This document shows positions 4,904-61,598 of a DNA stretch of 64,000 bases, piece by piece. The notes under the pieces are model-generated. The model did no database searches. It saw only the letters and a program-made list of their open reading frames with translations, and was not told where the DNA came from. Origin of the DNA: Eledone cirrhosa. Lineage: Eukaryota. How positions within the stretch are numbered: position 1 is the stretch's first letter; the number at the start of each line of letters is the position of its first letter. The stretch lies in contig OZ024757.1 of the NCBI GenBank assembly GCA_964016885.1, positions 42,036,001 through 42,100,000 of the forward strand, read 5' to 3'. The position numbers were made by a program, and so were the translations under genes.

Positions 4904-5601
4904 TGGTGGATTGGCAGTATCAGTAGAGTGTCGGATACCATGCTTTGATGCATAGAGTTATGGCCCTTGCCATTCTGAGGTTAACTTTGCCTTTCATCCT
5001 TACAGGGGGTCGATAAAATAAAGTACCAGTAATACACTGGAGTAATTTCTGTCCTTGTGCCAAAAGTAGAAACAACTATTATTATAGTTGTTGTTGAAGA
5101 TGATTTTATTATTGATATTATTATCATCATCACCACCACCCCACCACCCACCCAACAGCCACCACCATAATCATCATCATCATCTCAAGTTTAACCATAC
5201 TTTAATGTCAATATTAGGGTGTGTGTGTGTGTGTTTGCAAGAGATAATGTGTGACTATGTATGTGCATGTGTATGTGTTTGTCTGTGTGTGACTATGTAT
5301 GTATGTCTATATGTGTATGTGCCAGTGTGTCTCTGTATGTATGGCTATATGTGTGCCAGTGTGTCTCTGTATGTATGTCTAAATGTGTGTGTGTCAGTGT
5401 GTCTATGTCTATATGTGTACATGCAGCCCCATCACACCCCTCCAAATAGATCTAACAGATGCCATCTTTGGCAACAGTTACACATACAACATTACACAAC
5501 ATTATTTATAGATTTGTGGTTCCTCTATTTAGTTCTTTTCTGTATATATAGTTCAGATCATTTTCGATGAGTAAGAAGACTGTTATAGTTGAAACCATCC
5601 T

Positions 5602-5720: not shown

Positions 5721-6407
5721 GTCTATAACTTGTGCATGTGTTCAGCCTAATGACAGATATACCATATATCCAGTTATCATCCTTATTCCAAAGTTATTCC
5801 TAAGCTACAGCACCATTGTCCTTCATCAAGGTCTTACCTTAACCTTTTTGATACAAAACTACCAGAAATAACTCAGTAGTTTATGATACGAAACTACCAG
5901 AAACCACTCAGTATTTTATGATACGAAACTGCTCAGTTTAAAATGTTTCTTTTTTTCTACAATTCAACACATTTCAACTCCCTTCACTTTCTAAAGATTA
6001 TTTACAAAATGTTGACACATTGAAAAGCTAATTTATCCCTTTAGCATTTAAACCAGCCAGTAATTGTATAGTGTACAACATTATTCAAGACCTGAGTGTA
6101 ATTGGTTTGCTCTTGCTGAAAATGCTTCCAAATATAATATAAGAGAGAATATATATATATCATCATCATCATTTAACGTCTATCTTCCATGCTAGCATGG
6201 GTTAGACAGGTTTGCACCATTTAGAGACAAGTTGGGTCGGATGACTGTGTCTCACTCATATAGGACTATTTCTGGGTGGTTTTCTATGGCTCAATGCCCT
6301 TCCTAGCGCCAACCACATTTACATTGTGTGCTGGGTGCTTTTTACCATGTCTTTTACACGACCACTTTACAGAGTGGGCTGGATGTTTTGTAGTACCAAC
6401 GTAACAT

Positions 6408-32171: not shown

Positions 32172-32346
32172 CAATATATAAACAGTTTTATAAATAATTT
32201 TGACGTACCATAAATATTGAGCAACCGTTATGTAGGAAGCCGGCTTCCTACATAACGGTTGAGAGAGAGAGAGAGAGAGAGAGTGAGAGAGTGAGAGAGA
32301 GAGAGTGAGAGAGAGTGAGAGTGAGAGAGAGAGAGTGAGAGAGAGA

Positions 32347-32668
32347 TTTTGTTTTAGTCTCATTCATTCTCAGCCCCACACTCATCGACACAGTCTCAAC
32401 CTCCCGCATCAAATCCTCTGCTTCCTTTACTGTATTTGTCACCAAAACTATGTAGTTGGCAAATTCAGCATCCGATACCTTTTTCGCCCTAATTCTCCTG
32501 CTCTGAGCTGGTGTTACAGTAAAGCCAGAGTCCCGGTGTTTCTCCAGTGCAAGGCGCATACAATAGTCCACTACGATGATAAAAAGGTAGGGAGCCAATG
32601 TATCTCCCTGGAGCACTCCAGCCAGTATCTCAAAGAACTCTGTCATCCCATCAGGTGTAATGACTTGG
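32347..32668 (-). mobile_element. RTE/RTE-X LINE reverse-transcriptase fragment (inverted segment)
   Basis: Translation VITPDGMTEFFEILAGVLQGDTLAPYLFIIVVDY...FANYIVL...GLRMNETKTK shows the RT QG motif, a degenerate FADD box and GL..N..KT. Confidence 0.85.
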
Positions 32669-32797
32669 TTAACGTATGTTGATGCCCTAAGGACAGACAC
32701 TGGTCTGTTGGAGACGCAGGACATGGCAGCGATAATGAGGGACAGAGACCGCTGGAGAGAACTCGTCCATGGATCTCGGGAATTTTACCCGTCCTAG
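32669..32797 (+). mobile_element. RTE/RTE-X LINE ORF C-terminus and 3' end
   Basis: Translation LTYVDALRTDTGLLETQDMAAIMRDRDRWRELVHGSREFYPS* resembles the RTE-type D..G....M.DR..WR terminus; followed by a simple-repeat tail. Confidence 0.65.
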
Positions 32798-46105: not shown

Positions 46106-46988
46106 ATGTTTGTGTGTATATGTGAGAGTGTGTGTATGTGTATATATATATATATATATATATGTGTCTGTGTATGTACCAGAGAGAAACGGAGAAAGTG
46201 TATGTGTCGGTGTGTGCGTGTGTATGTGTCTGTGTATATATATGTCTGTGTGTATATATGTGTCTGTGTATATATGTATCTGTATGTATATATGTGTCTG
46301 TGTGTTCGTCAGCGATGTAATGAAGCTAGGATGAAACACTTGACTTTTACAAACAACTATATCATCCCCTTTTCCACACTAAACTAAAGGGTTAAAAGAT
46401 AAATTACAAAGGCTGTCTGCTCGACTATCTTACCTACATATCGCTGACCACTGTTATCTCCTTTTCTATTTGTAAAATCCCATCCTATGAAGGTAATAAC
46501 ATATCCAAAGTGAGTAAGAACAAGCCTGCAGTGTATAATATACTCATGCTACGCTTCGTTTAATAGTAAACTCGCTGCCTTGACAGGTGCTCATATAAAA
46601 CCCGAAATGGTTATTAAAAGATCGATAATCAGCACATCTCACTTCTACTAAATACTTGTTGCATGAGCTTTATTAGTTTATCGGTAGGACTTTGAAGTGG
46701 GTTTTTTTTCTCCTTTGTTGAGAACAAGATAAAGATGTTATAAATGTATATATATAATTGTTTTTAAGATATATAATCTTAATATTATACTTGTATTGTA
46801 ATTAAATACTAAAGGTAGTTTTACAACTTTAGAAACGAACTATTGTTTACAAACATATAAATAAACAATATTTTTTTCTATTTATTTTTCCATTGCAATA
46901 GTTAATAATGTGACAGGAAGGGAGACGGGTTATTTTTCGTTTCGTTTACACCAGAGTTTTTATATAAACTAATGTTGTAATTATCTAA

Positions 46989-47087
46989 ACCGGATGTAAT
47001 GGCTTGTATATAAATAGAGCAGGCACCTTGCTTCGTCCATTTCAGAAACATATCGATGTTAATTTAGAATAATTAAGGAGGTATGTC
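46989..47087 (+). promoter_or_regulatory. Duplicate Pol II core promoter and first exon (copy A)
   Basis: CCGGATGT (ETS-like), TATATAAA, CCATTTC initiator ~30 nt downstream, donor GAG|GTATGT; all also present in copy B. Confidence 0.55.
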
Positions 47088-47646
47088 GTTTATTAGTTAA
47101 TTAACCAACGAGGCAAATCAGCAACTTTTAAAAGAGATATGTTGAAAGGAAGCTATTTAAAATTTAGTCCTTTCCGTAATCAACTTCGACATGTTAGAAA
47201 CTCATTAACATTAATCTCCCTTCAGTATTAATTAATACAGTTTTTATTTATATTTCATAACTAAATTAAGATATTTATTTCATCATTCTTCCTACACTCT
47301 TTCAATATCGGTTTGTTTATTTTTTTTATTGATCTCCACAAATTGCAGAAATCAGCTTTAATATAATATATCACCTTTAGTTGTGTAGATTTTATAGATA
47401 GTTAATATAACGGATAAAACTGTCACTGAAAGTAACGTAGATATAGCATTTCTGCACACTGAGCAAGGCCATTTCCCTGGGGGGGAAGGGGTCCAGGCAT
47501 TGTTTTCCTTTCTACCCTTGGCGATCGTTAATATAACAGATAAAACTGATGTTGTGAAAGTAACTAAGCGGCAACACGGCCACGTGTCTTCACTAGTTGC
47601 AAGTCCTTATATTACTACTACACGTGGTTTCTTGGTGTTTCCTGAT

Positions 47647-47820
47647 ACTATCTCAATGATGACATTTTCAATTGTACGAAGATCTATTTCTCACTGTGTA
47701 GTAGTGCAGTTTTTGTGCTTTTTAGGGCCGTTATTCTGAGAAATTGTACGACCTTAGTTGCTTTTAGTCCATCACTTCTCTCAATACATCTGTTTTAGAG
47801 GTATTTGTCTGAGAAATAGT
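47647..47820 (+). ncRNA. Diverged U15-like box C/D snoRNA or pseudogene
   Basis: C box ATGATGA 47656-47662. Two D-box ends: CTGA 47736-47739 (guide tttagggccgttatt) and CTGA 47809-47812 (guide tttagaggtatttgt, U15-type). Terminal actat...atagt pairing. Confidence 0.5.
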
Positions 47821-48272: not shown

Positions 48273-48617
48273 ATTAAGTATTGAAATGTCCGATTTCTTT
48301 AACCCTTTAGCATTTAAACTGGCCAGAATTCTCTCACCTCTTTCTGTTCAAATCGGCTATATCTGGCCAGAATTCTCTCACCTCTTTCTGCTCAAACCAG
48401 CTGTAACTGACCACTTATACTGATATTATGTGAGATAAAACCTTTACCACGAAAATACAATAGTATATATAGAGTAATCTAAATGGTAATGGGTTAAGCA
48501 CTAAGTTTCAGAGTCACTATCTCAAACATTTCACCTCAAGAGTTCTTGGTTTTGTTCTTCAAATGCACATTTTGGTTCCTAATTGTCTTTTGAATTATTT
48601 CTTTCAGATCAATTTTT

Positions 48618-48974
48618 GTGAACCCATTGATGGATGTTTCAAAAATCCGTGTTGTTTATGAATACGAGTTTCGTCGTGGAACCAATGCATCGCAGACAGC
48701 TCGACACATCAAGGATGTATTTGGTGAGGATGCAACTGATGAACGCACAATACGCCGATGGTTTGAGAAGTTCCGTTCTGGTGACTTTAATCTTGAAAAC
48801 AAACGACGTAAACCTGTGACCAAGGTGGACAATAACGAACTGAAAACCGTGGTGGAAGCAGAGAAACCTCAAACTACACGTGAATTAGCGTCAAGGTTTG
48901 GTGTTAGTATCCCAACAATATTGACCCATTTGAAACAAATTGGCAAGGTAAAGCAGCTGGACAAATGGGTATGA
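48618..48974 (+). mobile_element. Mariner (Mos1/SETMAR-like) transposase N-terminal fragment, truncated
   Basis: YEFRRGTNASQTARHI...TIRRWFEKFRSGDFNLE...TTRELA..FGVSIPTI..HLKQIGKV..LDKWV*: double HTH region, stopping at the WVPHEL motif. Confidence 0.9.
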
Positions 48975-51943: not shown

Positions 51944-53047
51944 GCCCCCATTTGCTCATAATAATGAAAAATAGGGAGAGACGGAAGCAGTAACAATGGC
52001 AGTTTGGTTCCTTTGTGTTCGGGCCATATATATGTTTCACGGACATTCCCTACATAAAAGAATCCAGGAGAGCAACTGTATGAGTTCGAAAAAGAAGTGA
52101 TTCATATATAAAATGAGAGAAAGAGAGAGGAAGGAAGAATATACGGTGTGTGTGTGTATATATATGTGTGTGTCTGTGTGTTCGTCAGCGATGTAATGAA
52201 GCTGGGACGAAACACTTGACTTTTACAAACAACTATATCATCCCCTTTTCCACACTAAACTAAAGGGTTAAAAGATAAATTACAAAGGCTGTCTGCTCGA
52301 CTATCTTACCTACATATCGCTGACCACTGTTATCTCCTTTTCTATTTGTAAAATCCCATCCTATGAAGGTAATAACATATCCAAAGTGAGTAAGAACAAG
52401 CCTGCAGTGTATAATATACTCATGCTACGCTTCGTTTAATAGTAAACTCGCTGCCTTGACAGGTGCTCATACAAAACCCGAAATGGTTATTAAAAGATCG
52501 ATAATCAACACATCTCACTTCTACTAAATACTTGTTGCATGAGCTTTATTAGTTTATTGGTAGGACTTTGAAGTGGGGGGTTTTTTCTCCTTTGTTGAGA
52601 ACAAGATAAAGATGTTATAAATATATATATATATAATTGTTTTTAAGATATATAATCTTAATATTATACTTGTATTGTAATTAAATACTAAAGGTAGTTT
52701 TACAACTTTAGGAACGAACTATTGTTTACATATAAATTGTAAAAGTGTTCTGGCCTGGTGTATATTGTTTAATTTCTTACCGAACGCCAGAGTATTTTGT
52801 TTAAATTATTTTACAAATAAGTTCAAGCGACGCCGTGAGACAAGTTCTTTGTCATCGTTCGATCTGTTAAATTTAGAGGCCAAATCTTCACATCACTTCC
52901 ATATTAACAAATGACAGGGTCATTTTATAAATAAACAATATTTTTCCTCATTACAATAGTTACTAATGTGACAGGAAGGGAGACGGGTTAATTTTCGTTT
53001 CGTTTACGCCAGAGTTTTTATATAAACTAATGTTCTAATTATCTAAA

Positions 53048-53101
53048 CCGGATGTAATGGCTAGTATATAAAGAGAGCGGGCACCTTGCTTCGTCCATTT
53101 C
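53048..53101 (+). promoter_or_regulatory. Pol II core promoter of the snoRNA host gene
   Basis: ETS-like CCGGATGT 53048-53055; TATAAAG at 53067; initiator CC-A-TTTC with A at 53097, exactly 30 nt after TATA. Confidence 0.65.
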
Positions 53102-53690
53102 AGCTGCGGGTCGATGTTAGTTTAACATCGTTGAGGAGGTATGTCGTTTATAAGTCAATTAGCCTGGAGAAAAGCGTAGTAGATTAAGATATTTTAACTT
53201 TGAATATATTAGGAATGTTAAAATAGCTAACCCTATCTTTTTTGAAGCTAAGATTCAATTTTATTTAAGTACTAAATATAGTTTTAAATGCTTCAGTTTG
53301 GGAGTATGCTAGATAGAAAATCTCAGTAATGTCGCCCACACATCTTTTAAATGGTTAAACATTTTTTTCCCCAACTAGATTATATAGCTTCGATTCGATG
53401 TATAACTGGTATTTAAGAAAATTCATTCCGATTGTCCCGATCTTCGATAAATTTAAACGTAGAAGTATAACTGGTTTCTTTTTTTGTTTCATAATTATTC
53501 TTGGCTTTTATTAATTTCTTTGTTAACAGGTTTTAGGTTTCCTATAGTATATTCGACAGGTAGAGGTATTTCGATCGCCGCAAGGTTGATTAATGGAGCC
53601 ACGTGCTTTTTCCCCTCAGTCGCATCTCTTCCTCGCTGAAAAGACTCCACGTGGTCTTTTTGGAGGGGGGTGGGGTCGATGCTACTACTA

Positions 53691-53823
53691 AACTATTTCT
53701 GTGATGACAACGATGACGAGTCTTACAACAGATTGCTCTCTTCGTTCTACAGTTTTTGTATTTTCGAAGTTGAGTCAAACTGTTTAACTGATGTATTTAG
53801 AGGCATTTGTCTGAGAAATAGTT
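53691..53823 (+). ncRNA. SNORD15: Box C/D snoRNA U15 (SNORD15) homolog
   Basis: 10-bp terminal stem AACTATTTCT/AGAAATAGTT, C box GTGATGA 53701-53707, guide GATGACGAG before D'-like CTTA, guide GAGGCATTTG-T before D box 53811-53814. Both guides are complementary to conserved 28S CAAAUGCCUCGUCAUC (human Am3785 and Gm3792 positions) and match vertebrate U15 motifs as I recall them. Confidence 0.88.
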
Positions 53824-53982
53824 ACTAAATCCTTCACTAATCATGCGATGGCGACTAGTTTTTATCTTCACTCCTCTAGCTTTTAGTCCTTCACACAAAC
53901 CATGTCATTTAGATTTACCTATTTCTTTACTATACGCTTTTTTTTTTTTTTACATTTTGACTTTGTTAAAACTATGTGCTTC

Positions 53983-54045
53983 TGCTTTGATGATTTTGGA
54001 CTAGAGTCTCTGAAATGTATTTGAAGACATTTAATCCACTGAGCA
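53983..54045 (+). ncRNA. SNORD52: Box C/D snoRNA U52 (SNORD52/snR78) homolog
   Basis: Stem TGCT/AGCA, C box TTGATGA 53987-53993, guide GGACTAGAGTC-T before D' CTGA 54010-54013 complementary to 28S GACUCUAGUC (human Um3925, yeast Um2421), C' TGAAGA, D box 54039-54042. Confidence 0.8.
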
Positions 54046-54269
54046 AAATGGAGCATAATTTTCATAGTGATGTCATCTTAATCTCATGAGTCATAGATAT
54101 AGCTAATATGTACCGCCGATTTTTACCATTGGCATTGATTTTTTTGTTTCGATTCTAGGTTCATTAGCTAGCTTAAGTATTGTCGGTCTTTTTTTTAAAG
54201 ATTTAGCTGCTATTTCTGATACTCTTTTTCTTTCATGTGAGCTTACATGCTAGGTCTGGTTTTAACTTG

Positions 54270-54342
54270 TGTCCTGAGGGTGATGACTTCGTGGATCGAC
54301 TGATTTCTGACGATTATCCTCGCCCCTATCTGACTCAGGACA
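54270..54342 (+). ncRNA. Box C/D snoRNA U80/snR60-like, copy 1
   Basis: 9-bp stem TGTCCTGAG/CTCAGGACA, C GTGATGA 54280-54286, D' 54300-54303, C' TGACGA, D 54330-54333. D guide TCGCCCCTAT pairs with 28S AUAGGGGCGA (human Gm1625, yeast Gm908). Confidence 0.85.
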
Positions 54343-54504
54343 TTTTGTTACTGTTATATTCTGTAACCAGGTTCAAAGGTTAAACTTCAGTATTGTCGGC
54401 CCCCTTTTTTATATTTTAAGAGGCTTTTTTTTGTGTGGTTACATATAAATTATCCTGGGTGTCTTCAGTGTAAATCTGCTGCTAGGTCAGGTTATTAACC
54501 GAGA

Positions 54505-54577
54505 TGTCCTGAGGGTGATGACTTCGTGGATCGACTGATTTCTGACGATTATCCTCGCCCCTATCTGACTCAGGACA
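54505..54577 (+). ncRNA. Box C/D snoRNA U80/snR60-like, copy 2
   Basis: Identical to copy 1 across stem, boxes and guides. Confidence 0.85.
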
Positions 54578-54708
54578 TTTTGTTACTGTTATATTCTGTA
54601 GCCAGGTTCAAAGGTTAGCTTCAGTAATGCCTCTTTTGTTTTTTGTTTTTTTTTGTTAGAGATTTTGGGTGTCGTTTAAAAGATTCAGCTATTAAAGAGG
54701 TTGCTCAT

Positions 54709-54781
54709 TGTCCTGAGAGTGATGATTTCGTGGATCGACTGATTTCTGACGATTATCCTCGCCCCTATCTGACTCAGAACA
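54709..54781 (+). ncRNA. Box C/D snoRNA U80/snR60-like, copy 3
   Basis: Boxes and D guide intact; three substitutions relative to copies 1-2. Confidence 0.8.
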
Positions 54782-55070
54782 TTTCGTTAAGTAAATTATA
54801 TTATTCATAGAAACTTTATACTACAGAATATAACCTATCTGGGTTTTCGTAGCGTTAAGCGACTGATGATGCAGGATATCAGTCCATCGCAGTGTTAAAT
54901 CCTAGGTTATTACTGGTACTTTCGGCTGAGTTTATTGGATCAACGTGCTCAGAAACACCCGATATTCATTGTAGAATATATACAAATAGTTTCGGGAGAA
55001 AAATATAATTTAGGGGTCCATGGCCGCCCGTCCCCTTTATAAAAAAAAAATCTTTAGCACCGCCACGTTG

Positions 55071-55184
55071 GATTTTATTTTCTGATATAATGATGAACAC
55101 TGGTCGGAGTACTGTGCTGTTTTCAGCATTGATGACAACTCTAATCGTTCGTAGCTTCTGATTATAATTATCAGAAATAAAATC
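55071..55184 (+). ncRNA. Box C/D snoRNA, target unassigned, copy 1
   Basis: C ATGATGA 55090-55096, internal hairpin TGCTG/CAGCA, C' TGATGA, D CTGA 55158-55161, long external stem GATTTTATTTTCTGATA/TATCAGAAATAAAATC. Confidence 0.8.
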
Positions 55185-55399
55185 AGTTTGGTGTCTTTAC
55201 AAACTATGTTTTGTAAAAATAAGGTTGAATAAAATATTTTAAACATTGTAAGGTATTAGCATATCAAATGTTTGATTTGTGCTTCTCAAAATATTTCAAT
55301 AGACTTTGTCCAGAGCTATAGTTTTTCTAAAGTAGATTGAGGAATCGAACCTACGATATTCAGTCCGTGTTTAATCGGTCGGGGGACCATGTGTCCAGT

Positions 55400-55448
55400 C
55401 TGTAAATCTGCTTCTAGGTCTGGAATATCCTCGCCACTATTTGACTCG
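55400..55448 (+). pseudogene. Truncated fourth U80-like copy
   Basis: gtaaatctgcttctaggtc flank plus tatcctcgccactatttgactc (guide and D box mutated, C box deleted). Confidence 0.55.
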
Positions 55449-55676
55449 ATATTTTATTAGCAATCGATCCATCGTAAGTAAATTATATTCATACAGTGCG
55501 ACAAAACCCGAGTTGGATTGATTAGTTTAGCTGTTTATCAACTAAGGTATAAAAAAAAATTCGATATGTGATAAACATTTGTAGAATATATACAAATAGT
55601 TTCGGGAGAAAAATATAATTTAGGGGTCCATGGCCGCCCGTCTCCTTTATAAAAAATCTTTAGCACCACCACGTTG

Positions 55677-55790
55677 GATTTTATTTTCTGATATAATGAT
55701 GAACACTGGTCGGAGTACTGTGCTGTTTTCAGCATTGATGACAACTCTAATCGTTCGTAGCTTCTGATTATAATTATCAGAAATAAAATC
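55677..55790 (+). ncRNA. Box C/D snoRNA, target unassigned, copy 2
   Basis: Identical to copy 1 at +606 nt (C 55696-55702, D 55764-55767), within the local duplication ~54968-55250 / 55578-55880. Confidence 0.8.
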
Positions 55791-58022
55791 AGTTTGGTAT
55801 CTTTACTTATTTCCCTTCTCTAATTGACTTTATAAACTGTTCTGTAAAAAATAAAGTTGAATAAAATATTTTAAACATTGTTGTTGTTCTTATACTTAGC
55901 CCAAGTGTGACTTGTTCTGCTTTATAGGACATGAAAGATATCGATACCCGTTTTTTTTTTGTTTTTTTTTTATTAGTATCGCTATGGTGTCAGACCGGTA
56001 ATGGAATAATTCTGTGTATAACAGACGACAGTGGCTCTTATGGACATCTAAGAAATATTTATTAAAATAATCAAACTTCCAAGTGTCAGTAATCGGCATA
56101 AACTATAGGGTTCCTTTGATAAGGAGAACCTCACAGTTTCTATGTTTAATATATATATATATCTAACAACCTTGGGTGTGTGTTAATTCACTGGGTAATT
56201 GCTGGCCTTGTGCCTAAAGTAGAAACAGTTATCATGAGGCCAATACACAGCAGGAAAATACCTAAGTATGTGTATTGCATAAAAAAAAAAAAAAGCATTC
56301 AAAGCTTATACCTTTATTGACGGCACTGGTACACTAGTAACTTTAAAAAGATCAGACAGTTATTACAAGTCATGTTGGATGTCGCCTAAAGTGATGAGCT
56401 GTGGTCCTGCTACCCTATAATCAGACATTCCAGCAATTTTAATGTTGTCCTTCACATTTTTTAATAATTTGGCTGCTATTTCAGCAATTTACTCGAATAA
56501 AAAAAAAAACTAGTGTCTCCCTGCTGGTTGTACAGGACTTCGAGGCAGGAATTTAATTTTATAAATTGGGATGCGCAAGGTTAGATTTAACCTTGGGATC
56601 CCCAATTTTACATATCAAAGTTAGCTTATTGGAATTGAACTGGTATTAAATTCAAACATTCTAAAACTAAAAAGACCAGCTAAGGGCACAAATAAATTGC
56701 TACGGCCGTCGTTGGTGGGGCCCGGGGTGAAGGTGGAAAATATGAGATGCAATGCTTCAGCTTGTGCCCAGCAATGCTTCAGCTTGTGCCCATGAGTTTG
56801 AGAATACTTTTTTCTCCACCAATCTGAAAAGGATCATGGGTACTGATGTAACGTAGTAAAAATATAAAAACAAAGGATATGGTGGTTTTTAAGAAGATAT
56901 TTAATAGAAGTTGGTCTTAAAACGCATTTGATATAAATGTAGGAGAAATGAGCACAAATCCATGAAGACCTGAGGGTCTCATATTTCTGTGTAAAAATAT
57001 AAAACATTCAAAAGAATTCAAATCTTAAACTGGTAAATTGAAATACAGAAACATGCATATTTTTTTAAAGATGTGGATGTGGAAAGAAATTTTTTAAATA
57101 AAAGGTTTCCATTTCTCAAAGTTAAGAGAATTCTGTGTTAGCTTAATGTATCAAAAACTTTAAATATATATATTTTTTTTACAATCTGTTGTAAAACAGT
57201 CCTGCACATTGAATTATAAAATTCCATGTGAACAAGGTTTAGATTAATATTTAAAACTTGCAAAGTCTTTGGAAATACATTAAATGTGTGTATGTATATA
57301 TATATATTCGAAGTAGAGTGTGACAAGACACCCATTTATCTTTGGAAATACACACATACATTATATATAATGGAAGTGGAATGTGACAAAACACCCAAAT
57401 TTATAGAATTATGCAAATATAAACAAGACTTAAAAAACATCAAAGCTGTCACAGTTGGTAGAAAGTCGTAAGGAGTTCCAACAGTTTAAATTACTTGTTT
57501 GTTCTTCCAAATGAAGGGATTTATAGAAATTCCCACAAAAAATCCAGAATTGTAGGTTAAACTTCGTACATCTCTTAAGGACCCAGTGCTGAAAGAATAG
57601 CGTGGAGGACGGGTGATACGTGACTAAAGCACAAAGCAATGTTTTTGTAGGAGAGAAAGTATAGTCAAATATACTATCTCAATGGTTTCTGACTTAGGCA
57701 CAAGGCCAGCAATTTTAGGGGAGGGGAAAGCGATACTGGTGCTTTATTTTATCGACCCTGTAGGGATGAAAGGCAAAGCTAACCTCGGCGAGATTTGAAC
57801 TTAGAACGTAAACGGCAATAAGGACGCCACAAAGCATGTCCGGCGCTCTACCGATTCTGTCAATCCACCAATATACTATATTAATGGCACTTAGTCCGAC
57901 CTCCAAGTGGGATAAATCTCCATCGTTGAAACTGCTGTTCTACCATTCTTAATGACATCAATTGTGAGTTACACTCAACGAAACAAACAAAAATATTCAA
58001 CTCATAGAATAAATCTATCTTT

Positions 58023-59171: not shown

Positions 59172-61070
59172 TTATTGTGATGGCAGCGTGTTGCCCGAAT
59201 ATTGAACATTCTGCATGTACGCAATACATGGCACCATCGGAGTTTGAGAAGACTGGCATGTCGACATTGCAGCGGCTGTAGCAAAATTCTGGGGATACAT
59301 AGCATATAGTTGATGAGTATAGGAGTGCTGCGAGGGATAATAGACGGCTGTGCTCTGAACAGGTGCGGTCATGGTGGAGGCATAACGTAGAGAGGACACT
59401 GTTTGGGTTAATGAAGGTGAAGTTATGTTGGAATTCTGGAGCATACTAACAGCTTTGTGGTATTCGAAACCAAGATTGTAGAAATACCTTAAAGTTGTGA
59501 GATCAGAGAAAGGTAAATCTCTTCCGCATGGATCTTGAGAAACTCCGAAGTTGAAGTTCACTAAATTATTGGCTCGTTCCAAATAAGGAATCCAAATATG
59601 AGGATTTATAGAGATTCTTGAAGTGACATTGACTGGTGCCGCCGACAGAGAAGTTGTACTGTTGCTGACATTAGTGAGAGGCGGTTGAGCGACATTTACT
59701 AACACATTGTCGTTGGTAGAGTCAATGTTTGGTAATGTCGCTGGTAGAGACGAACTTACCAACATTTCAGTATTGGATTGATCATATTCAAACTGCTTAC
59801 AATAGTGGCATTCACAACTAATGTTCTCGTTTGGGTTATTTAACGAAGATTTATCGCCATTTACTTCCTCTATAAAATGTTCAGTGTTTTCTGGGTTTGT
59901 ATTCTTAGAATATTTATTAAAACTCCTGGAAAATTTAGCAGTTCTATTTGTAGAGTTTAATTTCCTCTGGGCGTACATTTTAGGTTGTCTACTTACACTT
60001 TTTTTCGCTTTAGTAGACGTAGTCAAATTACTAGAGACTAATTGACTCGTACCATTCATGTGTACAACCATAGTCACAGATTTTCGGCACTTTCTACCAC
60101 TTTTCAAAAGATATCGCTCATTTGAAGGTATATGCCTTAAGCAATCGTAAGAAACTTGACATTTCTTACCAAATTCTTCTATAAATACTTCAACAGGTCC
60201 CCCATTATCAGTTACTTCTTGAACATGAGCATTATATGTCCGGTCAGTCCCGTCTATAACTACTTGGCATTTGTCACCCGGTTGGAACTCAGAAAGCCTT
60301 TTCGCCAATAATTCAGCTCTTTTAGCTTCTTGCCAATTATCAAATTCAATATTCCGATAAATATCTGGATCCAGTGCCTTGGCAACTCTGTAAGGTAATG
60401 GAGGGCTAGGTTTTCTGTTCTCGCAGTCTTTTCTAGAACCAACACAGTCAAATTCCTGTTCGTTTTTCTTGTCACAAGTTACACTTTTGTTGTTTCTAAC
60501 ACGTTTGCATTTATTTTGTTTCCGTAACATATTTACAGCCTCTTCAATTTCGGTGGGCATTTCAAATACGTTACGGTACAAGATATCATAAACCACAGAC
60601 TGGCAGAGAGCTGCTTCAGGTGGGAATGATTTCGAGTAAACACTATCATAGTGAATACCATCAAAAAATAATGAAATTTGCTTCGTATAATCAGCTTTAG
60701 AGATGGAATATATACTGTCTATACCTGTATAGATAAAGAAATTTAACTTATATAGGTCAGACAATACCTTAATTTCTGTGTAGCTACCACAAACTTCATC
60801 TTCGAAGCTAAAACTTAAATCAACGCACGTGTCTTTGCTGCTTTCACTTGAAAATGAATGACTCGAAGATAATTTTCCTTCAACAGTTTTCTGTAGGTGG
60901 TCATGGAATGCCTGTGTATTAAACAACTGTTCCGAGACGGCTCTGTAGAAACAGGAGCCATCTTTAGGAATAGGTTTACGCCATAATCCTAAACCATCCA
61001 AATATAAATCCACTTCGGTTCTTGGTTTGTTATTAATACTTATAACATTAGACAAATTATTGTCTCCCAT
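59172..61070 (-). CDS. OTU-domain deubiquitinase with Tudor domain (OTUD4/ALG13/ovarian tumor family), single-exon CDS, 632 aa
   Basis: LGLWRKPIPKDGSCFYRAVSEQL (D37/C40), GIHYDSVY (His box), AALCQSVVYDILY..VF, PLPYRVAKALDPDIYRNIEFDNW, Tudor FQPGDKCQV...YNAHVQEV...GPVEVFIEEFG, C-terminal GRDLP..D..TLRYFYNLG; uninterrupted, non-repetitive ORF. Confidence 0.93.
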   Translation of the reverse strand: MGDNNLSNVISINNKPRTEVDLYLDGLGLWRKPIPKDGSCFYRAVSEQLFNTQAFHDHLQKTVEGKLSSSHSFSSESSKDTCVDLSFSFEDEVCGSYTEIKVLSDLYKLNFFIYTGIDSIYSISKADYTKQISLFFDGIHYDSVYSKSFPPEAALCQSVVYDILYRNVFEMPTEIEEAVNMLRKQNKCKRVRNNKSVTCDKKNEQEFDCVGSRKDCENRKPSPPLPYRVAKALDPDIYRNIEFDNWQEAKRAELLAKRLSEFQPGDKCQVVIDGTDRTYNAHVQEVTDNGGPVEVFIEEFGKKCQVSYDCLRHIPSNERYLLKSGRKCRKSVTMVVHMNGTSQLVSSNLTTSTKAKKSVSRQPKMYAQRKLNSTNRTAKFSRSFNKYSKNTNPENTEHFIEEVNGDKSSLNNPNENISCECHYCKQFEYDQSNTEMLVSSSLPATLPNIDSTNDNVLVNVAQPPLTNVSNSTTSLSAAPVNVTSRISINPHIWIPYLERANNLVNFNFGVSQDPCGRDLPFSDLTTLRYFYNLGFEYHKAVSMLQNSNITSPSLTQTVSSLRYASTMTAPVQSTAVYYPSQHSYTHQLYAMYPQNFATAAAMSTCQSSQTPMVPCIAYMQNVQYSGNTLPSQ

Positions 61071-61598
61071 CTTTTTTTCTTTACCTAATTCAAATACTGG
61101 AGTAAATTCGAATTCTTGCTAGCGAAGAAGTACCTCGTTCACGGGTTACTGTACACACAAGTAATTAGCAGGCGTTCTTCTCAAATACCATTTAATATAA
61201 TCTGGGAAGAAACCAATCTTTCATGATAGGTGCCCGTAATTAATTCTAAATTATCTCCCTTTGGTGCTCTGCCAATTGAACAACCTGTGGCACCCCACTC
61301 ACCAAATTCAGTTGGTCGGGTTCACAAGAGAGCCTCTACGTGGTCGCTCGAAATAGCAGTCAAATCTCCCTCAAACCACACATTACCATCTTAGATAAAG
61401 GACGATTGTTTTGTTTTTTTTCAACACTGGCGGTCTGCAAATTAGTATATATATATATATATAAGTAGAGGGGTATTTAATTTGTTGGAAATCCGACAAA
61501 TATAAATGTTTATAACTGATTTAGAGCACCCAACAGTTTACTGGAGTAAATATTCAATGATATTAAATAAATGGAAACTATATTTATAAAACCATATT

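Follow-up and report, generated by a model that had tools for sequence, protein, structure and literature searches.

Sequence analysis of a predicted non-coding host gene for seven box C/D snoRNAs, with U80-type guides matched to an altered 28S rRNA

Identification of the box C/D RNAs

A 64-kb stretch of a 3.0-Gb animal genome (G000:C18:42,036,001-42,100,000; hereafter the window, with positions counted from its first nucleotide) was analyzed for a predicted non-coding host gene of small nucleolar RNAs (snoRNAs). Between 53696 and 55783 of the plus strand, seven box C/D RNAs were found in a row behind one promoter-like element: s1 (53696-53819), s2 (53983-54045), s3 (54271-54341), s4 (54506-54576), s5 (54710-54780), s6 (55079-55177) and s7 (55685-55783). 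Each has C and D boxes and a terminal stem within 60 – 150 nt, and at the level of sequence several same-strand snoRNAs follow a single promoter of the RNA polymerase II (Pol II) type. From box C to box D, s4 is identical to s3, s5 differs from s3 at 1 position, and s7, a copy of s6 in a 606-nt tandem unit, is identical to it, as expected from the local duplication proposed in a preliminary description of this DNA. Contigs assembled from public DNA runs (the sample is possibly the same as the assembly's) span the junction between s3 and s4 as well as the point where the second 606-nt s6/s7 unit begins. Because these contigs bridge the duplicate junctions, the duplications are unlikely to be assembly artefacts.

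The window was scanned with a strict rule (RTGATGA C box, CTGA D box, terminal stem of at least 4 bp). The region 53000-56100 gave 6 matches, whereas 300 first-order Markov resamples of it averaged 0.02 and never gave more than 1. The remaining window gave 2 overlapping matches, both in one GAT repeat, and the minus strand of the window gave none. s2 lies outside the strict matches because its C box reads TTGATGA; with it, the seven same-strand RNAs of the preliminary description were all recovered, boxes and stems included. A C-box-like CTGATGA at 54863, followed by CTGA at 54926, was not counted; it has no stem and lies inside a dispersed repeat. These sequence features support the reading of all seven RNAs as box C/D snoRNAs.

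Targets were sought in 18S, 5.8S and 28S ribosomal RNA (rRNA) and in U1, U2, U5 and U6 small nuclear RNA (snRNA), all taken from the genome itself, so target predictions are based on the organism's own sequences; rRNA numbering follows the ribosomal DNA (rDNA) copy on C25. Five RNAs (s1–s5) have antisense elements that pair in the D+5 or D'+5 register with this rRNA at known methylation sites. The pairings correspond to zebrafish guide:target rows for LSU-3764, LSU-3904, LSU-1521 and LSU-1612 (LSU, large-subunit rRNA). Guides at the 28S sites of U15, U52 and U80, as described earlier, were thus found for s1–s5; s6 and s7 have no canonical target in the genome's own 28S and point to 18S.

Guides and targets of s1 and s2

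s1 (C box 53701, D box 53811) was assigned as the U15/SNORD15 orthologue (RF00067; 53.6 bits, E 2.6e-9; gathering score 75). Its D guide (53800-53809) makes 10 of 10 pairs with 28S 4955-4964 and places A4958, the equivalent of LSU-3764, at D+5 (1 of 60 shuffles as good). A 5' element (53712-53720) makes 9 of 9 pairs with 28S 4962-4970, so that a D guide for LSU-3764 and a second 5' element, the marks of SNORD15, occur together. A 16-nt pairing of the 5' part with 28S 6190-6205 was rejected, as it depends on a GTC repeat and an arbitrary D' box.

s2 (D' box 54010) was assigned as the U52/SNORD52 orthologue (RF00276; 37.9 bits, E 2.2e-5; gathering score 45). Its guide (53996-54008) pairs over 13 nt, including 2 G:U pairs, with 28S 5088-5100 and places U5091, the equivalent of LSU-3904, at D'+5 (0 of 60 shuffles as good), as expected of a SNORD52 D' guide. 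Guides, registers and the second element of U15 are conserved relative to the known families; both scores lie below gathering level, and the host does not appear to be RPS3. The zebrafish rows SNORD15/LSU-3764 and SNORD52/LSU-3904 (PMC7668251) show the same two duplexes. In genome searches that give lower bounds, s1 and s2 were the best U15 and U52 matches.

U80-type double guides and the altered 28S site

s3, s4 and s5 were assigned to the U80/snR60 double guides (snR60/Z15, RF00309; 20.6-23.6 bits, E 0.56-2.8; gathering score 41). The D guide pairs over 10 nt (1 G:U) with 28S 1497-1506 and places G1501, the equivalent of LSU-1612, at D+5. The D' guide CGTGGATCG (54290-54298 in s3) makes 9 of 9 pairs with 28S 1407-1415 (CGATCCACG) and places U1410, the equivalent of LSU-1521, at D'+5. 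A D' guide for LSU-1521 and a D guide for LSU-1612 are therefore carried by one RNA, in the same registers as in SNORD80/SNORD77, yeast snR60 and plant U80 (RF00309, clan CL00070), a double guide that was traced across plants, human and yeast. The RNAs described here differ from that family in that the D' guide is changed at 4 of 9 bases, the target is U and not A, the RNA is about 71 nt long, and the score is 20-24 bits against a threshold of 41.

At the equivalent of 28S 1407-1415, UGAACUAUG stands both in the Rfam LSU consensus and in the zebrafish target, and the genome's own 28S differs from it at 4 of 9 positions (A-to-U at the target nucleotide and three U-to-C changes). The D' guide departs from the family consensus at the same 4 positions, each time to the Watson-Crick partner; by our arithmetic, four matched substitutions would arise by chance with a probability of 1/126 x (1/3)^4, or about 1e-4. 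For two of the three U-to-C changes the partner in the rRNA helix has changed to match, and one gives a non-standard pair. The predicted target sites of the cluster were unchanged in 3 of 3 rDNA copies examined. The 9-mer has exactly one perfect site in 18S and 28S together, at the expected place and register; 485 of 20000 shuffled 9-mers had a perfect site anywhere. The nucleotide aligned with U1410 elsewhere is an A, the methylated LSU-1521 of human and zebrafish, which is listed as Am815 in yeast and Am824 in Arabidopsis (Am, Um, Gm and Cm denote the ribose-methylated nucleotides). Since the D' guide has tracked the four rRNA substitutions, this ancient Am site is predicted to be Um here, and the three U80 copies are predicted to methylate U where other eukaryotes methylate A. 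A comparable case is zebrafish SNORD34 at LSU-2824, where three compensatory guide changes accompany a shift from Um in human to Gm in zebrafish (PMC7668251); here there are four changes, the site is common to yeast, plants and human, and methylation is predicted.

Another 28S site, 2984-2997, gave the lowest energy for the D guide, but its pairing starts at -3 with a G:U and the site is partly deleted in 1 of 3 rDNA copies, and it was rejected as the main target. A pattern of the U80 C box and D' guide gave 110 matches in metagenome contigs, which were taken as chance because none carries the D guide. An ancestral-type U80 D' guide gave 78 matches in the genome, against 158 in a reversed control, and was thus uninformative. 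Within the cluster, a decayed fourth U80 unit (55401-55447) retains the upstream flank and a mutated D guide and has no C box.

At about 2.87 kb for 18S and about 6.2-6.3 kb for 28S, both rRNAs are very long; along with the size and repeat content of the genome, these lengths would suit a coleoid cephalopod. Units of rDNA were located on C4, C12 and C25 (L019-L024); the C4 unit is only about 96% identical to those of C12 and C25, which are 98-99% identical to each other, and this suggests two rDNA types in the genome.

The s6/s7 family

s6 (C box 55090, D'-like CTGT 55112, a hairpin, C' box 55129, D box 55158, and a 9-bp outer stem) and its copy s7 had no credible Rfam match, and SNORD28 gave no match at E up to 10. 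The best D' match of s6, 9 bp with 1 G:U ahead of the CTGT box, has 18S C2066 as its target. When the zebrafish SSU-1383 row (SSU, small-subunit rRNA) is taken as the reference for counting, C2066 corresponds to SSU-1391, a Cm in human that U28 guides. In the second guide region, an 8-nt element pairs perfectly with the adjacent 18S 2054-2061, which 106 of 20000 shuffles equalled. Extra pairing of this kind beside the target is a described feature that raises methylation up to five-fold in yeast (PMC3116282). A genome-wide pattern for a canonical guide to the 18S C2066 site gave 1 match, inside an apparent coding exon. Taken together, the odds slightly favour s6 and s7 being a U28 equivalent that would guide methylation of 18S C2066. 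Because there is no Rfam match, they would be at most a functional equivalent: human U28 (SNORD28, 18S Cm1391) uses box D, whereas s6 would use a CTGT D' box and an extra element.

It is also quite conceivable, at somewhat less than even odds, that s6 and s7 are not U28-like and are orphans, or folding chaperones that pair near 28S 1609-1621. The top duplex of the 3' guide is a 13-nt stretch with that segment (1 G:U, 1 mismatch), and the non-canonical D' box fits such a reading. A 13-mer pairing of that quality was found somewhere in rRNA in 37 of 300 shuffles, a far commoner event than the 8-nt match adjacent to the 18S site, and both the precedent for pairing in the second guide region and the near lack of a canonical guide elsewhere in the genome speak for the U28-equivalent reading.

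Comparison of s6 with U1, U2, U5, U6 and 5.8S gave pairings of 7-8 nt only. A pattern of the s6 3' half gave no match in metagenome contigs, and short s6 motifs were not found in 7 of 8 Drosophila supplement files or in the Arabidopsis ones, which may list no snoRNA sequences. Matches to the s6 pattern on C21 were dismissed as a GTA/GAT microsatellite. Zebrafish SNORD204, whose listed target is 5.8S-8 via box D, resembles the s6 5' guide on visual comparison only, and the likeness was not accepted.

A third s6 copy lies on C7 (22.685 Mb; L027 4890-5033, minus strand), in sense orientation within an intron of a KIF2A-like kinesin gene and with about 40 nt of flank. Its boxes are intact and its C' box is improved to GTGATGA. 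s6 and this copy agree in 69 of 73 columns between box C and box D, against 57 of 99 beyond them, and this better conservation within the boxes suggests selection on s6.

Promoter, predicted exons and coding potential

Upstream of the cluster, an ETS-type site (CCGGATGT, 53048-53055), for which we take ETS/GABP to be the factor, is one of two CCGGAWGT sites in the window (the other, at 46990, lies in the upstream duplicate described below). It is followed by a TATA box (TATATAAA, 53065-53072) and by predicted exon 1 (53097-53138), which was located by a spacing scan and begins in an initiator-like CCATTTC of pyrimidine-purine (YR) type, with the A at 53097, within a pyrimidine-rich tract. The donor GTATGT at 53139 has a U1-pairing score of 17 (90th-95th percentile of GT sites). 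The combination of TATA, initiator and donor, found just where it had been described before, occurs at two places only on both strands of the window, here and in the duplicate (47007-47080). Predicted exon 2 (53530-53559) has its acceptor at 53529 and a donor at 53560 that scores 19 (99th percentile). At 53522-53534, DNA runs X1-X3 have 3-nt and 7-nt deletions around this acceptor, by which the AG is left in place and exon 2 is shortened by 7 nt. Two CACGTG E-boxes follow at 53600 and 53648 (53600-53653) as putative Myc sites; a similar pair (47581, 47621) precedes the U15-like copy in the upstream duplicate.

Downstream of the predicted exons, s1 and s2 are each succeeded by a clear polypyrimidine-AG acceptor (53879 and 54158). 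A candidate micro-exon (54159-54176), obtained by alignment and a splice scan, has weak donors and is repeated with the tandem unit at 54371-54389 and 54606-54623. The acceptor described earlier was recovered for exon 2; the micro-exons after 53880 have plausible acceptors and weak donors only. Most of the snoRNAs might instead be cut from one long intron or from an unspliced polycistronic precursor, as in yeast and plant clusters, behind a real promoter. That good splice signals are limited to exons 1 and 2, that no strong donor lies between s1 and s2, and that only some 30 nt separate the ends of s3 and s4 from the next acceptor would fit such a precursor. We regard it as improbable, given the acceptors after s1 and s2 and the structure of each duplicated U80 unit, in which an AG, an 18-19-nt segment and a GT succeed one another as in the exon-intron-snoRNA units of zebrafish FP101887 (PMC7668251). 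Four public sequencing runs behave as DNA, so the absence of splice joints in the cluster is uninformative on expression.

On the plus strand, stop-to-stop frames between 53097 and 59170 reach at most 108 aa, the longest being a microsatellite, and the longest ATG frame between 53097 and 56100 is 53 aa. The unit is bounded at 59172 by a convergent gene on the minus strand (59172-61118), whose 648-aa frame has no introns and carries an OTU-like deubiquitinase domain at its N terminus (Pfam E 0.004; PDB OTUD5 E 3e-5); it is possibly an OTUD4/ALG13-like retrogene. No coding frame was found between the promoter and this gene, which agrees with the preliminary description, and when six predicted exons were joined as a trial (151 nt), stops interrupted each of the three frames; the predicted exons, and the lack of protein-coding potential in this interval, are provisional. 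In animals, intronic snoRNAs mostly reside in coding hosts, s6 has a copy in a KIF2A-like intron on C7, and short coding exons could have escaped detection. On these grounds the host might be a gene for a protein or micropeptide, with the cluster in its 5' introns, or a larger gene that extends across the region and holds the cluster in one intron. Given the absence of a sizeable plus-strand frame ahead of the OTU gene and the stops in the trial join, we consider a coding host quite unlikely.

A tandem partial duplicate of the host lies upstream on the plus strand (46275-47816) and comprises the upstream region, ETS site, TATA box, initiator, exon 1 with its donor, the two E-boxes and a U15 variant. 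Over 46275-47106 it aligns in blocks of 96% and 89% identity, keeping promoter, start region and donor, and the intron diverges right after the donor. The U15 variant (47656-47812; C box 47656, D box 47809) has an internal duplication and no 5' second element, and no copies of the other snoRNAs of the cluster follow it. Elsewhere in the window, a Mariner/Mos1 transposase fragment (48594-48974, plus strand), a LINE reverse-transcriptase fragment (32248-32784, minus strand) and three tRNA-like SINE heads (11474, 23798 and 35982, minus strand) were noted.

Dispersed copies and change of host

Copies of the cluster snoRNAs are dispersed on C26, C3, C7, C9 and C308. The cluster could in principle be a set of silent duplicates with the working snoRNAs elsewhere, and these copies, with the decayed unit inside the cluster, are what such a case would draw on. 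We consider it very improbable: s1 and s2 are the genome's top-scoring U15 and U52 in the lower-bound searches, and boxes, stems and guides throughout the cluster are undamaged and match the rRNA as it is now. Of the dispersed copies, the one on C9 is incomplete and those on C26 have terminal stems that are no longer intact.

The C9 copy of U15 (12.313 Mb; L025 4854-4913, minus strand) is 5'-truncated and 98% identical, ends after box D in 8 A residues and lies among SINE-like repeats; no target-site duplication was seen. It resembles the type-1 snoRNA retroposons described in PMC1687206, and is a weak hint that a mature U15 RNA may exist. A long inverted repeat on C26 (8.341-8.343 Mb; L026 4300-5560) has two U80 copies facing one another across it, together with as much as 150 nt of their downstream flank, a layout that capture by a foldback element or a repair event might produce. 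A further dispersed U80 copy was found in L028 (4911-5012). The third U15-like RNA, on C308 (L034 1501-1626), retains its C box, D box and D guide intact and is closer to the upstream variant.

At least three U15 matches were obtained (on C18, C308 and C9), and both RPS3 matches lie on C4, apart from all three; a U15 host other than RPS3 fits these positions. The two RPS3 matches (C-terminal domain, 88.595 and 88.623 Mb) are on the same strand 27 kb apart, by tandem duplication or assembly artefact. In the preliminary description, the three families were said to occupy different hosts in human (RPS3, SNHG32/C6orf48 and GAS5). In zebrafish, U15, U52 and U80 likewise have separate hosts (rps3, FP101887 and gas5; PMC7668251). 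The lineage-specific relocation proposed in that description is a candidate reading. The combination of families had also been called unfamiliar, a claim that lost its force: since snoRNAs shift hosts as a rule (PMC3511168, PMC6984369), such a combination is unsurprising.

Discussion

We read this locus as a non-coding multi-snoRNA host gene that carries snoRNAs in tandem duplicates with targets in the organism's own rRNA, and assign this reading a probability of roughly 0.78. The host gene is probably real and functional, and its snoRNAs are likely cut from introns of a non-coding transcript. The preliminary interpretation was therefore supported in part, and three features go beyond it: the compensated U80 D' guide, the pointing of s6 and s7 to 18S, and the duplicated promoter.

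Several observations weigh against this reading or its parts. At Rfam gathering thresholds the whole window gave 3 tRNA-like matches and no snoRNA, and 0 of the 7 cluster RNAs reach the gathering score; of the Rfam matches that had been anticipated, SNORD15, SNORD52 and, weakly, snR60/U80 appear below threshold. The U80 D' duplex is not significant by energy alone (10 and 12 of 60 shuffles as good); what speaks for it is its position and register. For the D guide of s6, no target anchored to the box was obtained (34 of 60 shuffles as good). The s6 D' duplex is not significant by energy either (5 of 60 shuffles as good), and the D' box concerned, CTGT, is non-canonical. Donors in the stretch from s1 to s7 are weak where they exist at all; the highest score from 53880 to s2 is 14 (75th percentile of the window), so one snoRNA per intron is not established. 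The predicted start is of YR type, whereas a C-pyrimidine start of the 5' terminal oligopyrimidine (5'TOP)/TCT kind is usual for snoRNA hosts (PMC6954239); dual YR/YC initiation has been described in such hosts (PMC6954239). Short plus-strand frames were judged by eye.

The host would be transcribed from the promoter and spliced, and exonucleolytic trimming of the introns would release the snoRNAs, which would then assemble with fibrillarin, Nop56, Nop58 and 15.5K. The resulting particles would methylate 28S A4958 (U15), U5091 (U52) and, through the three U80 copies, G1501 and U1410; methylation of 18S C2066 by s6 and s7 is predicted less surely.

The literature already has examples of non-coding hosts with several snoRNAs, of snoRNAs shuffled among hosts, and of guides and targets that co-evolved while the target base changed. 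Drosophila Uhg1-8 and vertebrate UHG/SNHG1 and GAS5 likewise have a Pol II-type promoter, short exons, no coding frame and mixed-family C/D guides in tandem copies. Here the set of families is another, the predicted start is of YR rather than 5'TOP/TCT type, and the E-boxes lie about 500 nt downstream; the present host is known from its sequence, and a likeness is drawn with no claim of orthology. Drosophila Uhg1 holds 16 snoRNAs and no other growth-relevant transcript, and several Uhg promoters have Myc-bound E-boxes (PMC4430873). Zebrafish FP101887, the SNORD52 host, is apparently non-coding as well and combines U52 with tandem exon-intron-snoRNA units and a 3' orphan C/D RNA (section 10 and Fig. 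S9 of PMC7668251). FP101887 amplifies U52 nine times; the present cluster has one U52, and its amplified families are U80 and s6. The FP101887 orphan, SNORDX, is unlike s6 by eye. No mollusc snoRNA host gene was described in the literature titles and abstract openings listed, a coverage that leaves out most subscription papers and gene annotations, and the accessible part of a giant squid paper gives Rfam snoRNA counts only (PMC6962438).

The host-gene arrangement itself is textbook and ordinary in animals; the compensated U80 guide and the s6 family merit a specialist's note. Because standard Rfam annotation misses the whole cluster, snoRNA counts for such genomes are probably too low, and precise methylation predictions are supplied here for an unusual rRNA. 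We give even odds to the fuller proposal that, in a sharply diverged rRNA core, a methylation site common to yeast, plants and human has changed from Am to Um and continues to be methylated through a triplicated U80 D' guide rewritten at 4 of 9 bases, and that the same host also carries a C/D family unknown to Rfam that has taken over the 18S site of U28 with a split guide. The four compensating guide changes, with their predicted Am-to-Um switch, would make a clean case of guide-target co-evolution at an ancient site and, if true, the locus would be a natural test of whether selection keeps the ribose position rather than the identity of the base.

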